From Escherichia phage P479, in the sequence record MW269952.1: a stretch of DNA of 64,000 nt; one strand, written 5' to 3'. This document shows, piece after piece, positions 7,081 to 11,041 of this stretch. The first letter of the stretch is position 1, and each line of letters begins with the position of its first letter. The position numbers and the translations under genes were made by a program. The notes below the pieces were generated by a model. It was not told where the DNA came from. It made no database searches and saw only the letters and a program-made list of their open reading frames with translations.

Positions 7081-7105
7081 TTCAAAAGGTCTGCCTTCGG
7101 GTGGA

Positions 7106-7174
7106 CCTTTTTTCATTTAGGGGTTTACAACACCATAAAAAGGGTGTACTATTATCCCATCAACTACTGAGGAG
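7106..7174 (+). promoter_or_regulatory. Early promoter cassette (PeSL), near-identical copy at 38369-38438
   Basis: GTTTACA..GGGTGTACTATTATCCCATCAACTACTGAGGAG, preceded by UUCG hairpin 7087-7113. Confidence 0.65.
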
Positions 7175-7180
7175 AACACA

Positions 7181-7384
7181 ATGAGAATTAAAAATATCAA
7201 GATTGATGCAGTTAATACTGGTGATGAGGTTGTTATCTATCTTAATGATTATGCAATCTTTATGGACAGTGCCACTGATGAAGAAGTGGTTGAACTCTTA
7301 CAGAAAGCTCCATTTGAACTGTGTGAAGAAGATGCTACCCATCTTTCATCAGCAATTTTCTCATTATCATATGTGGTGGAATAA
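7181..7384 (+). CDS. Hypothetical acidic protein
   Basis: 67 aa; starts just after the PeSL cassette. Confidence 0.4.
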   Translation: MRIKNIKIDAVNTGDEVVIYLNDYAIFMDSATDEEVVELLQKAPFELCEEDATHLSSAIFSLSYVVE

Positions 7385-7620
7385 TGAAACTTACAAATAC
7401 CATGGTTTCATTGGAATATGAAACCAATAATCATATTCTTGAAATTAAGATATTTGATGACGGAAGCATATTTGCTGATTACAGAGGATATAGAATCCGC
7501 CTGGAAAAGGACGAGCTCAAGGAACCATGGCTCCTTAAAGACACCTTAAAAGGTTGTGGGTGCAAGCTGAAGAACACTCAAGTCCAAGAATTAATTTCTA
7601 CCATCAAAAAATACTGGTGA
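7384..7620 (+). CDS. Hypothetical protein
   Basis: 78 aa; start overlaps upstream stop. Confidence 0.4.
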   Translation: MKLTNTMVSLEYETNNHILEIKIFDDGSIFADYRGYRIRLEKDELKEPWLLKDTLKGCGCKLKNTQVQELISTIKKYW

Positions 7621-7624
7621 TATT

Positions 7625-7807
7625 ATGTTAACTACTGAACAGATTGAAAAAATTATCAAACTCGCCTGGCACATTGAAAATGCATCCAATGACCTGGCTG
7701 TTGAATATTGTGAAGGTTATTCATATTCTGGAATAGAACAGTGTAAACGAGATTTGGCTAACTCTAAAGCAGCCTTGGTTGAGTATCTGAATGAGTTGAA
7801 AGAATAA
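7625..7807 (+). CDS. Hypothetical protein
   Basis: 60 aa. Confidence 0.35.
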   Translation: MLTTEQIEKIIKLAWHIENASNDLAVEYCEGYSYSGIEQCKRDLANSKAALVEYLNELKE

Positions 7808-8064
7808 TGGCTGTTGGATTTGCAAAAGATGGTGCTGAACAGTTAGAGATGGAAGCGGTTGTACAGGCCGCCATCACCCATGCGAGAGCACAAGTTGCAG
7901 TTGAAAGGGAGTCTGCTGAATTCTGTTTTGACTGCGACGAAAAAATTCCTGAAGCGCGGAGACAAGCGATTAAAGGCGTGATATATTGTGTTGGTTGTCA
8001 ATCAATGCATGATGAAATTTTTAAACGTGAGCCAAGAAACTGTTGGCACAGGAGCATGAGATGA
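7807..8064 (+). CDS. DksA/TraR-type C4 zinc-finger protein
   Basis: 85 aa; CFDCDEKIPEARRQAIKGVIYCVGC is a Cys-x2-Cys-x17-Cys-x2-Cys finger of the TraR/DksA type. Confidence 0.5.
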   Translation: MAVGFAKDGAEQLEMEAVVQAAITHARAQVAVERESAEFCFDCDEKIPEARRQAIKGVIYCVGCQSMHDEIFKREPRNCWHRSMR

Positions 8065-8155
8065 TTTACTATCTTGAACCTTGGGCTTGGTTAACAATGG
8101 CTGTAGGGCCTGTTTTAATTGGTTTATTCTTTTCATGGTTAGCGAGGAAACTGTA

Positions 8156-8371
8156 ATGTTATATGACCCAAGTGGTAATTCTGAAAATGGTGTGATTGTT
8201 CTGGAGCCTGAGCATCCAGTTGGTGACGTATACCGCCCAGTTGAAGTGTGCGAATGTAATTTTGTTAAAGGTAATACTGGTGGGATTTCCATTGAGCAAG
8301 ATGATGATGTTATTTACCTGGATGCAAGCCAAGTAGAAGCTCTTTATAGTATTTTAAAACATAACCGTTGA
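8156..8371 (+). CDS. Hypothetical protein
   Basis: 71 aa from ATG 8156 with GAGGAA Shine-Dalgarno. Confidence 0.35.
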   Translation: MLYDPSGNSENGVIVLEPEHPVGDVYRPVEVCECNFVKGNTGGISIEQDDDVIYLDASQVEALYSILKHNR

Positions 8372-8381
8372 GGAACAGAAA

Positions 8382-8942
8382 ATGATTATTGAAACAACTG
8401 AATTGTTTGGCGAACTGACCGCTGAAGTAGTTAATAACGCAATTGAGCTTTGTCAAGAAGACGATAAAATCGTACTGACTATCGCTGATATTAAACCGCT
8501 TTACGATTTAAAGGTTTTGGACAGACACGATTATCTTAATGGTCGTGCTAGTGCTCCTGTTGATATCAATGATGATATGTATGCCTATATCTATAAAAAT
8601 GAAAACGGGTTTAATCTGGAAAATGGTATTGAATGTCTGAGCATCAGCGATTCTGATAAATTCTTTGATTGTATTTTCAAACTCTTCCAGGAAGAATGCA
8701 AGCCAGAAGTTGAATGGAAAGTCCCTGGTCAAGACGCACTGATTCGCTCTAGCGAAACGTTTGAAGGCGATGAAGAGGAATTAGATTATAATACTGAACT
8801 GACTGTGTATCAACATAACGGCCGTGACTTGTTGTCCATTGTCCAAAGACATGACGGTGAAAGTGAAGTTGTATTTACTAAAGACGAGCTAAAAGTTTTA
8901 GTCTCTTATCTGAACTCTGTTATCCCAACTATGAACTCTTAA
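8382..8942 (+). CDS. Hypothetical strongly acidic protein
   Basis: 186 aa; Asp+Glu far exceed Lys+Arg by eye. Confidence 0.45.
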   Translation: MIIETTELFGELTAEVVNNAIELCQEDDKIVLTIADIKPLYDLKVLDRHDYLNGRASAPVDINDDMYAYIYKNENGFNLENGIECLSISDSDKFFDCIFKLFQEECKPEVEWKVPGQDALIRSSETFEGDEEELDYNTELTVYQHNGRDLLSIVQRHDGESEVVFTKDELKVLVSYLNSVIPTMNS

Positions 8943-8952
8943 GGAAAATATT

Positions 8953-9405
8953 ATGATTATCAATGCAAACTCTTGGCATGCTCGTTTCCACGATAAATTT
9001 TATGACCGCCATTCTCGTCCGCACTCATTGTGTGCTTACTTTTGGAAAATGGTTTGGGCCTGTTTTGTTTGTGCCATTTTTATCGGTAGTATGGTTTTTG
9101 GATTAACTGTCGCGGGGGCTGGTGTATTAGAGCATTTCTTTGTATTAAGTACCCCGGTTGGTTTAGGTTTAGGGTTTATTTTAGGACTAGCTACACTGGC
9201 TCTTATTCTGGCGGTAGCATTTGGTTTAATGTATGGTCTAATGAATTTATGGTCCTGGTATGATTTACGTAAAGAAGAAAAGGAATGGCAACGTATTCTA
9301 GCCAAACGTGAAGGAAAGGAAACTAAAGAAAACATCGTTATTCAATACATTAAAGCTCGTAAATCTAAGATGTGTCCTGTAATCCACTTCGAGGACAAAA
9401 AATGA
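8953..9405 (+). CDS. Hypothetical multi-pass membrane protein
   Basis: 150 aa; hydrophobic helices in residues 30-110; overlaps the next gene. Confidence 0.45.
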   Translation: MIINANSWHARFHDKFYDRHSRPHSLCAYFWKMVWACFVCAIFIGSMVFGLTVAGAGVLEHFFVLSTPVGLGLGFILGLATLALILAVAFGLMYGLMNLWSWYDLRKEEKEWQRILAKREGKETKENIVIQYIKARKSKMCPVIHFEDKK

Positions 9406-10412
9406 GAACAGTTATGAAAGGCTACTTCGGTAGCCACCTTTATGGAACAAGTACCCCAGAATCTGATGTCGATTTTAAAGAAATCTTTGTTCCACATCCT
9501 CGTGATATTCTACTTGGGACGGCGATGAACCATACCAACCTGAACACAAATAACACGGCCACCAAAAATACAAAAGATGATGTTGACCATGAACTTTATA
9601 GTCTGAAATATTTCTTTAAACTGGCAGCCGAAGGCGAAACCGTTGCTCTGGACATGATTCACACCCCGGCTGACCTGGTAGTCAAATCCGATTTACCAGA
9701 TGTATGGAAGTTTATTCAAGACAACCGTTCACGGTTTTATACAACTAACATGAAAGCCTATTTAGGGTATGTCCGTAAGCAAGCTTCTAAATATGGTGTT
9801 AAAGGTTCTCGTCTGGCTGCTCTGCGTGGTGTACTGGCTATTGTTAACCAGATTCCTGAACAGTGGGTCGATTATCAAGAAGACGGTTCGACTAAGCAAC
9901 GTCGCACTAAGGTAGAAGATATCAAACATCGACTCCCTGAAAATGAGTTCTGTGAATGGGTATTCCATAACCACGAGAAAACAGGTCCTCAAACGTTCTA
10001 TACTGTTCTTGGACGTAAGTACCAAACCACCTTGTCTTTAATCGAGCTCAAGCAATCTCTGAATAAGCTCGATGCGGAATATGGTGAACGTGCTCGTAAG
10101 GCTGAAGCCAATGAAGGTATTGACTGGAAAGCATTGAGTCATGCTTACCGAGCTGGATATCAGCTGAAGGAAATTTATATGACCGGTGACCTTCAGTATC
10201 CTTTACGAACAGCACCGTTTATCCTTGAAATCAAACAAGGGCTACATGCTTTTAAAGATGTACAGGCTGAACTTGAAGCTATCGTTGATGAAGTCGAAAC
10301 TAATGCCATCTGGGCTGCTAAGAACGGTATGCCTGCGAAGGTGGACATGAAGTTCTGGGACAAGTTTGTTGAAGAGGTATATCTTGACAACCACAATTCC
10401 TATTATCGTTAA
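9402..10412 (+). CDS. Pol-beta-superfamily nucleotidyltransferase-like protein
   Basis: 336 aa from ATG 9402 (GAGGA Shine-Dalgarno); GSHLYGTSTPESDVDF fits the G[SG]-x9-D-x-D nucleotidyltransferase motif. Confidence 0.55.
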   Translation: MRTVMKGYFGSHLYGTSTPESDVDFKEIFVPHPRDILLGTAMNHTNLNTNNTATKNTKDDVDHELYSLKYFFKLAAEGETVALDMIHTPADLVVKSDLPDVWKFIQDNRSRFYTTNMKAYLGYVRKQASKYGVKGSRLAALRGVLAIVNQIPEQWVDYQEDGSTKQRRTKVEDIKHRLPENEFCEWVFHNHEKTGPQTFYTVLGRKYQTTLSLIELKQSLNKLDAEYGERARKAEANEGIDWKALSHAYRAGYQLKEIYMTGDLQYPLRTAPFILEIKQGLHAFKDVQAELEAIVDEVETNAIWAAKNGMPAKVDMKFWDKFVEEVYLDNHNSYYR

Positions 10413-10418
10413 ATTCTA

Positions 10419-10442
10419 AGGACCCTTCGGGGTCCTTTTTTA
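10419..10442 (+). terminator. Rho-independent terminator (UUCG tetraloop)
   Basis: AAGGACCC-TTCG-GGGTCCTT followed by a T-run. Confidence 0.7.
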
Positions 10443-10455
10443 TTTTAAAAAGTAG

Positions 10456-10510
10456 TGTACAACCAGATGGTCATGAGGCATAATGTTCCCATACTGAGTT
10501 ACCAAATAAA
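10456..10510 (+). promoter_or_regulatory. T4-type early promoter (family with CCATACTGAGTTACCAAA leader)
   Basis: AAAAGTAGTGTACA, 17-bp spacer, CATAAT 10479-10484, then GTTCCCATACTGAGTTACCAAA. Confidence 0.6.
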
Positions 10511-10525
10511 CAAACGGAGAATAAA

Positions 10526-10732
10526 ATGTTAGAATTAATCAAAGCTGCTGGTGAAAAAGGTCTGATGGTTAACACTCGTGACCCAGAACAACGTCAAGCA
10601 TTTGGTGAGTTAAAAGCCAAAGGTCTGGTTAAAGCATCCCTTGGTATTGGTAATGCTTTGCGTGTGACTTTGACCCCTGCGGGTAAAGCAATGTTCTTCC
10701 CTAAACCATTACCAAAACGTCGTCGCAAGTGA
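10526..10732 (+). CDS. Hypothetical small basic protein
   Basis: 68 aa; C-terminal KRRRK tail; GGAG Shine-Dalgarno. Confidence 0.4.
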   Translation: MLELIKAAGEKGLMVNTRDPEQRQAFGELKAKGLVKASLGIGNALRVTLTPAGKAMFFPKPLPKRRRK

Positions 10733-10738
10733 GGAATT

Positions 10739-11041
10739 ATGAAGAAGTATGAACTTGACATGATTGATGCATGTCTGAAATCTGCTGACCATTTTAAGTT
10801 GAAAATGCACAAGTTAAGAGGAATGGTCAAAACTCCAGAAGAGAAGAAGCGATATGCTCTGAAGGAGAAATGTAAAGCTCTTATCATGATGGATAAGCTG
10901 CAAATGGTCGCCGCAGAAGCTCACAGGACACGTAAAGCTGAGGCCCTTGGTGTTTATATGGCAGAGCAGCTCCATCGCGCCCAGCAAGCCGTTAAGAGCG
11001 TCTGGTTCAGCGGTGAAAATACTGAAAGAACTTTTAATTAA
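10739..11041 (+). CDS. Hypothetical protein
   Basis: 100 aa; basic, helical. Confidence 0.4.
   Translation: MKKYELDMIDACLKSADHFKLKMHKLRGMVKTPEEKKRYALKEKCKALIMMDKLQMVAAEAHRTRKAEALGVYMAEQLHRAQQAVKSVWFSGENTERTFN

Follow-up and report, generated by a model that had tools for sequence, protein, structure and literature searches.

Escherichia Phage P479 Encodes an Ortholog of T4 NrdC.11, a RlaP-Family Nucleotidyltransferase with a Proposed Role in tRNA Repair

The window analyzed here is a stretch of 64,000 nucleotides of DNA from Escherichia phage P479 (sequence record MW269952.1), in which positions 8953–10412 hold a membrane-protein gene followed by a nucleotidyltransferase gene. The nucleotidyltransferase gene, open reading frame (ORF) 9402–10412, lies on the + strand, starts with ATG and encodes a protein of 336 amino acids (aa). 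Sequence comparison identifies this protein as an ortholog of phage T4 NrdC.11, which stands for a divergent RlaP (PF10127) subfamily within the Pol-beta nucleotidyltransferases. With a probability of roughly 0.6, we consider that the enzyme adds nucleotides to RNA 3' ends in the manner of RlaP during phage tRNA repair, and that the membrane-protein gene is separate from this function. The gene itself is already known: RefSeq T-even genomes annotate nrdC.11 as a nucleotidyltransferase, and an activity of the family has been published. An initial annotation of the window, made by a model from the letters and their translations, had described the ORF product as a Pol-beta-type nucleotidyltransferase, and this description is borne out by the PF10127 match, the catalytic residues and the modelled fold. 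Its view that the sequence does not reveal the function is not supported, as the gene is an ortholog of T4 nrdC.11 and the RlaP family has a published biochemical activity (PMC12776372).

Identity and Catalytic Residues of the Enzyme

The ORF 9402–10412 product matched the phrog_388 family ("nucleotidyltransferase") with an E-value of 9e-132, and the PF10127 (RlaP) profile over residues 8–134 with 42.2 bits (E 1e-10; gathering cutoff 23 bits). Among the enzyme families that the initial annotation had proposed for profile searches, the RlaP type therefore was the right one, whereas none of the cGAS/DncV-like, MNT/KNTase and CCA-adding assignments had a significant profile match. The gene was found in 1518 phage records by tblastn. 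At the protein level it is 100% identical to its counterpart in Escherichia phage 212 and, across all 336 residues, 82% identical to the nrdC.11 products of T4 and RB32. The DNA between 8300 and 10800 shares 95.6% identity with Escherichia phage vB_EcoM_VR20 and 93.9% with Shigella phage SP18 (genus Gaprivervirus).

The gene order in annotated relatives is tk, an rI-type gene, mobD.x genes, mobD.1, the membrane protein, nrdC.11 and nrdC.9. High full-length identity, together with the same flanking genes in the tk-to-nrdC early region, places the ORF in the T4 NrdC.11 orthologous group. With the T4 protein it shares length, motif and a place in the tk – rI – mobD.x – nrdC.11 – nrdC.9 early region; however, the place that the membrane-protein gene holds in P479, RB32, and SP18 is taken in T4 by the homing endonuclease gene mobD, and nrdC.10, located downstream in T4, is absent in P479. 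T4 NrdC.11 has been explicitly assigned to PF10127, in cluster 5 of a sequence similarity network (SSN), by authors who called its function unknown (PMC12776372), and our literature search on nrdC.11 turned up no work on the function of the phage gene. The NrdC.11-type protein is labelled 'thioredoxin' in many UniRef clusters and phage records, and 'HNH homing endonuclease' in one. A Pfam scan found no thioredoxin domain in the ORF 9402–10412 product, and we suspect that the 'thioredoxin' label spread from the gene symbol nrdC.11.

The N-terminus of the protein reads MRTVMKGYFGSHLYGTSTPESDVDF, in which G10-S11 is followed, after ten residues, by D22-V23-D24. This motif (9429–9473, + strand) would supply the first two metal-binding aspartates, judging by conservation and by the alignment to canonical RlaP. 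It had been noted initially as G-S-x9-D-V-D; the motif is indeed present, and its spacer has ten residues rather than nine. The probable third catalytic aspartate is D62 of D60-V61-D62 (9579–9587, + strand), which is conserved and lies in a beta strand formed by residues 61–67 in the structure model.

Relatives were collected from 1.8 billion cluster representatives, of which 3059 matched at E ≤ 0.001 and 774 at E ≤ 1e-30, mostly over the full length. Conservation was assessed in an alignment of 133 sequences, including 132 representatives at 34–52% identity. In this alignment G10, S21, D22, D24, Y131, H247, R250, and P267 never varied, while S11, D60, D62, and D84 were each retained in at least 90% of the sequences, and PF10127 was matched by 131 of the 133. 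The G-S-x10-D-x-D motif was also present in each of the 80 viral loci examined. The initial annotation held that loss of the D-x-D residues in homologs would speak against a nucleotidyltransferase; because G10, D22, and D24 are invariant and the motif is kept at all 80 viral loci, this objection fails. In the uncultured viral contigs L032–L034 (6001) the start codon of the nrdC.11 ortholog seems to be TTG instead of ATG, and its catalytic motif is intact.

The AlphaFold (AF2) model of the enzyme had a predicted local distance difference test score (pLDDT) of 95.1 and a predicted template modelling score (pTM) of 0.85. Based on DSSP, the model consists of an alpha/beta catalytic domain (residues ~1–112), helices at 118–149, a beta-rich insert (~154–208) and a helical bundle (213–335). 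Of the long helical domain that had been described behind the catalytic part, the helices are present, but the region is not purely helical, as it includes the insert. This insert (9861–10025, + strand) in the C-terminal region is predicted to be specific to the NrdC.11-type clade, and no counterpart to it was seen when the profile was compared with that of canonical RlaP. A conserved YxVxGxKxQ segment sits inside it. Among solved structures the model matched Pol-beta nucleotidyltransferases only. Annotated phage nucleotidyltransferases are among the predicted viral structures that share the overall fold, at query-normalised TM-scores of up to 0.69. When the protein, the family profile and a canonical-RlaP profile were searched against PDB sequences, nothing meaningful was returned. 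The enzyme has the catalytic set of RlaP, consisting of G-S, D-x-D and a third conserved aspartate in a Pol-beta fold.

Relation to Pseudomonas RlaP and Genomic Context of the Relatives

Two Pseudomonas RlaP enzymes, PfRlaP and PaRlaP, which are encoded between rtcB and rtcA, were characterized in a preprint of December 2025 (PMC12776372). Both attach one or two nucleoside monophosphates (NMPs) to the 3'-OH of RNA, with an optimum in Mn2+, and the addition halts after these one or two nucleotides (PMC12776372). On a mimic of cleaved tRNA the broken anticodon-loop end is favored over the acceptor end, and the aminoacylation of a tRNA without one anticodon-loop nucleotide is partly restored (PMC12776372). 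RlaP accepts many cellular RNAs for labelling and discriminates little between nucleoside triphosphates (NTPs); it is inactive on DNA and protein, leaving Escherichia coli proteins unlabelled (PMC12776372). In the crystal structure of PfRlaP the C-terminal domain is helical, and its last helix turns back to pack against the catalytic domain.

As a proxy for cluster 1a, the sequence cluster of PfRlaP and PaRlaP, a canonical RlaP profile was built from the paralogs that adjoin bacterial relatives of the phage enzyme. The NrdC.11-type profile aligned with it in HHalign at 94.6% probability (E 6.7e-8) over the first ~130 residues only, and G10-S11, D22-x-D24, and D62 mapped onto the invariant G-S, D39-x-D41, and D72 of canonical RlaP. 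By this comparison the catalytic domain is common to the NrdC.11-type and the canonical enzymes, the C-terminal part not detectably so. PfRlaP, PaRlaP and the phage enzyme have in common the Pfam family PF10127, the catalytic set of G-S, D-x-D and a third aspartate, and a two-part plan in which an N-terminal catalytic domain is followed by a largely helical region; relatives of both enzyme types occur in RNA-repair operons. They differ in sequence cluster (1a for the Pseudomonas enzymes, 5 for NrdC.11), and the phage gene lies outside any rtcB operon. In addition, canonical RlaP paralogs have ~255–290 aa, while the phage enzyme has 336 aa with the beta insert.

The genomic context was examined in 6-kb flanks at 80 bacterial and archaeal loci (L086–L165) that carry full-length relatives at 34–50% identity. 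Bacterial relatives of the enzyme sit in operons for RNA repair, and the full-length relatives that give this context are 34–43% identical to it. Within 6 kb of the gene, Pnkp was clearly encoded at 7 of the 80 loci (plus 2 weak matches), Hen1 at 7 (plus 1 weak match) and RtcB at 8. A canonical RlaP paralog was located directly downstream on the same strand in 23/80, often overlapping, and within 6 kb in 25/80. At L145 the genes follow the order Hen1, Pnkp, NrdC.11-type, and the Pnkp stop overlaps the NrdC.11-type start; this order recurs at L150 and L159, where Pnkp stops shortly before the start. Some loci extend this to the four-gene order Hen1, Pnkp, NrdC.11-type, RlaP (L145 3338–7799; L150 894–7796). 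Among 116 immediate neighbors, Pfam identified PF10127 (16), AAA_33 kinase (5), PNKP_ligase (4), Metallophos (4), HD_4 (3), RtcA (2) and a T4-type RNA ligase (1). A gene for an HD_4 phosphohydrolase was found at most ~0.5 kb from the NrdC.11-type gene at five bacterial loci and one viral locus (L075 5447–5995; L144 5484–5915; L158, L111, L126, L136). This phosphohydrolase could heal 3' ends and so provide the 3'-OH that the transferase requires.

RNA-repair genes also occur next to some viral relatives. The start of the NrdC.11-type gene is overlapped by an AAA_33 kinase gene at the viral locus L069 and by the HD_4 gene at L075. In Vibrio phage 11895-B1 (L003 1805–5921), the gene of a CCA-adding enzyme is located ~0.5 kb upstream of the homolog, with an AAA_33 P-loop kinase beyond it, all within ~3 kb. 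An HNH endonuclease ORF splits the CCA-adding gene of this cluster, and the cluster also contains an unclassified 'hydrolase'. SP18, the close relative of P479, encodes pseT, rnlA, and rnlB (Pnk, Rnl1, and Rnl2, respectively) elsewhere in its genome. An RNA-repair neighborhood thus was observed for the bacterial and some viral relatives, but not in the window or in other T-even phages.

A Candidate Step in Phage tRNA Repair

Since Pseudomonas RlaP extends an RNA 3'-OH by one or two nucleotides, we infer by analogy that the likeliest role of the phage enzyme would be to refill trimmed, cleaved tRNA before ligation. As in Pseudomonas RlaP, one or two nucleotides would be added to the 3'-OH of a broken RNA in a two-metal, template-independent reaction. 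The enzyme would act after the phage polynucleotide kinase/phosphatase (Pnk) has healed the ends and before sealing by Rnl1 or Rnl2. In this way it might replace nucleotides that cleaved anticodon loops have lost to RloC-type nucleases, which excise the wobble nucleotide, and the phage RNA ligase would then restore a usable tRNA. RloC is known to excise the wobble nucleotide, and Davidov and Kaufmann considered that this lesion could impede phage repair (PMC2610378). NrdC.11 would thus be an accessory of the classical T4 pathway for tRNA repair, dispensable and directed against host defence. The region nrdC.11–mobD.3 can be deleted from T4 (PMC9825161), which fits such an accessory role.

Several observations weigh against refilling of tRNA by the phage enzyme. 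The assayed RlaP enzymes belong to cluster 1a and not to the NrdC.11-type clade, and the profile similarity covers little more than the catalytic domain, the C-terminal region with its beta insert being different. In T-even phages nrdC.11 does not adjoin RNA ligase or kinase genes, and the literature searched shows no phenotype that ties nrdC.11 to RloC or another nuclease. Moreover, a dedicated search found the canonical RlaP paralog at 0 of 83 viral loci and nowhere in the 64-kb window; therefore the phage enzyme may work differently from its bacterial relatives, or alone.

The action on RNA 3' ends might also serve another purpose, such as repair or maturation of the tRNA 3'-CCA end, or tailing of host or phage transcripts that alters their stability. 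The broad labelling of cellular RNAs by RlaP and its low NTP specificity are compatible with such roles, as is the CCA-adding gene close to the homolog in Vibrio phage 11895-B1. Yet the addition ends at one or two nucleotides, the broken anticodon-loop end is favored over the acceptor end (PMC12776372), and the association with Pnkp, Hen1, and RtcB indicates the repair of breaks. These other 3'-end roles are variants of the tRNA-refilling model that we consider possible but unlikely.

A different kind of substrate was considered as well. In the style of MNT antitoxins or aminoglycoside nucleotidyltransferases, the enzyme could nucleotidylylate a protein or a small molecule, for instance inactivating a host toxin or metabolite. 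A marginal NCBIfam match to MntA (E 0.056) points in this direction, but it reached 13.3 bits against a cutoff of 60, and NTP_transf_2 reached 14.2 bits against 21, so that these weak matches reflect the generic fold. For the MNT/KNTase enzymes the structural comparison likewise gave a generic fold match only. Kanamycin nucleotidyltransferase/ANT(4') and the 3c18 nucleotidyltransferase-like protein have no family-level sequence similarity to the phage enzyme, and their genomic context is different. The family-level assignment is RlaP, the characterized RlaP enzymes left E. coli proteins unlabelled (PMC12776372), and the relatives are found in the context of RNA repair. A protein or small-molecule substrate is thus distinctly improbable. 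A CCA-adding enzyme in the strict sense was not indicated either, as Pfam and NCBIfam searches at E up to 0.1 gave no match to a tRNA nucleotidyltransferase head domain.

The Upstream Membrane-Protein Gene

The gene preceding nrdC.11 (8953–9405, + strand) encodes a 150-aa phage membrane protein of the phrog_944 family (E 1.4e-56). Hydropathy analysis showed a single hydrophobic block at residues 25–101, and the AlphaFold model, of moderate confidence (pLDDT 72.7), has two long helices at residues 26–62 and 67–119. Because of this one block and the two modelled transmembrane (TM) helices, we read the product as a two-pass membrane protein with both ends predicted in the cytoplasm. The initial annotation had called it multi-pass; a membrane protein it is, and the number of passes can be narrowed to two. 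In the alignment, conserved motifs were found in the predicted cytoplasmic parts, MIINxNSWH...RPxxLCAYFW at the N-terminus and KARKxKxCP at the C-terminus, with two invariant cysteines, while the helices vary. The protein had no family in Pfam, NCBIfam or PADLOC, and a large-database search with it returned close phage relatives only. Sub-threshold matches to NIPSNAP, oleosin, and ABZJ_00895 were disregarded.

The junction of the two genes (9391–9405, + strand) consists of a GAGGA Shine-Dalgarno sequence at 9391–9395, a 6-nt spacer and an ATGA start/stop overlap at 9402–9405. The overlap with the 3' end of the membrane-protein gene reported in the initial annotation is therefore real: the TGA stop of ORF 8953–9405 lies within the ATGA that opens the enzyme gene, and an identical 4-nt overlap is annotated in RB32. 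Such an arrangement permits coupled translation and could point to a functional two-gene module, in which the enzyme product regulates the membrane protein as in the Hailong system (HalA/HalB), or in which the pair counteracts such a system. Hailong is an operon of a transmembrane protein and a nucleotidyltransferase (PMC13434031), and so resembles P479 in that genes of these two kinds stand together; HalB (PDB 9dbh) was among the fold matches of the phage enzyme. However, HalB has ~217 aa and makes protein-primed poly-dA, and its likeness to the phage enzyme stays at the level of the fold, being limited to a generic catalytic domain of 150 residues with 12% identity; no PDB chain matched by sequence. 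Neither protein had a PADLOC match in the 2023 release, which may lack Hailong.

The arrangement of the two genes was surveyed in a 6-kb upstream flank at the 80 viral loci. Although a phrog_944-type gene was present in 43/80, it directly abutted the enzyme gene in 13 only; at 30 loci it was located 0.35–1.85 kb upstream with intervening genes, and at the remaining 37 it was absent from the flank. In phage VR26 (L007 4779–6001) the gene of a 254-aa HNH homing endonuclease lies between the membrane gene and nrdC.11. T4 has mobD at the position of the membrane gene, and in the RB32 record (L002 4540–5001) the membrane gene is said to "replace mobD" relative to T4. Both cases, VR26 and RB32/T4, indicate homing endonuclease traffic at this junction. 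In phages of the Klebsiella and Enterobacter type, the enzyme start is overlapped, again by 4 nt, by genes of unrelated soluble proteins (140–184 aa). Direct pairing was observed at 0 of the sampled bacterial relatives, which adjoin RNA-repair genes and not membrane proteins. The two products also diverge at different rates, as the membrane protein is 29–37% identical to the Tequatrovirus versions, whose enzymes are ~82% identical to that of P479.

Within the window, ATGA overlaps join 14 of the 107 same-strand pairs of neighboring ORFs, and any overlap is found in 37 of the 107. Because overlaps are this common and the upstream gene is variable, the ATGA overlap was rejected as evidence for a partnership; it is a packing habit of these genomes. 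We conclude that the membrane-protein gene is accessory, evolves fast and stands apart from the enzyme gene within their shared early transcription unit, and that the coupling of the two is incidental. A functional two-gene module is accordingly very improbable. A shade more remote still is the more specific idea that an oligonucleotide or RNA product of the enzyme controls the co-translated membrane protein, or acts as a decoy, like or against Hailong; if true, the phage would encode its own form of a nucleotide-gated membrane switch. That the enzyme makes or caps a signalling nucleotide in the manner of cGAS/DncV, or sequesters or mimics immune signals, is extremely improbable, since it shares with such enzymes the Pol-beta fold only, with no CD-NTase, SMODS or other signalling-enzyme match in Pfam, NCBIfam, and PADLOC and no CD-NTase structure among the top fold matches.

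Boundaries of the Transcription Unit

The initial annotation placed a strong terminator at the end of ORF 9402–10412, and this was confirmed. The intrinsic terminator (10418–10443, + strand) has a GC-rich stem of 8 bp (AAGGACCC/GGGTCCTT, 10418–10437) with a TTCG loop, followed by a T-run; its fold energy is -13.8 kcal/mol (z = -3.56), and 1 of 200 shuffled sequences was as stable. The probable upstream boundary (7084–7152, + strand), based on a consensus scan only, consists of a terminator at 7084–7111 and a promoter-like TTTACA-17-TACTAT at 7124–7152. Between them, the genes from 7181 to 10412 are tightly packed, with overlaps or gaps of at most 16 nt, and immediately ahead of 8953 the scan detected neither a terminator nor a promoter-like site. 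The membrane-protein and enzyme genes therefore do not form a compact two-gene unit, as had been proposed, but are the last of about eight genes in a unit of ~3.3 kb; the rarity of direct adjacency at the viral loci speaks against such a unit as well.

The same transcription unit encodes, at 7807–8064, an 85-aa DksA/TraR-type zinc-finger protein (PF01258, E 5.8e-9), and in Acinetobacter phage 133 a TraR/DksA-like gene is similarly placed, two genes upstream of nrdC.11. In the region 10440–10740, where the T4-type nrdC.10 is absent, promoter-like sites follow the terminator at 10456–10535. Beyond the terminator lie a 68-aa ORF (10526–10732, phrog_6001) and an nrdC.9-like DUF7203 gene (10739–11041). 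A tRNA scan and an Rfam search at the gathering threshold of the whole window (1–64000) were empty. Of the 123 ORF-level genes in the window, 115 are on the + strand.

Implications for T4-Type Phages

T4 is the phage in which RNA repair was discovered. The nrdC.11 gene of P479 is a catalogued gene and nothing new in kind; its value is that of a test case for the role of a RlaP-type enzyme in T4. While bacterial genes of the NrdC.11 type are usually followed by a canonical RlaP, phages carry the NrdC.11 type only, and this difference may guide later work. If NrdC.11 refills the nucleotides lost to wobble-excising nucleases such as RloC, it would add an extra step to the arms race between PrrC and RloC on the side of the host and Pnk and Rnl1 on the side of the phage.

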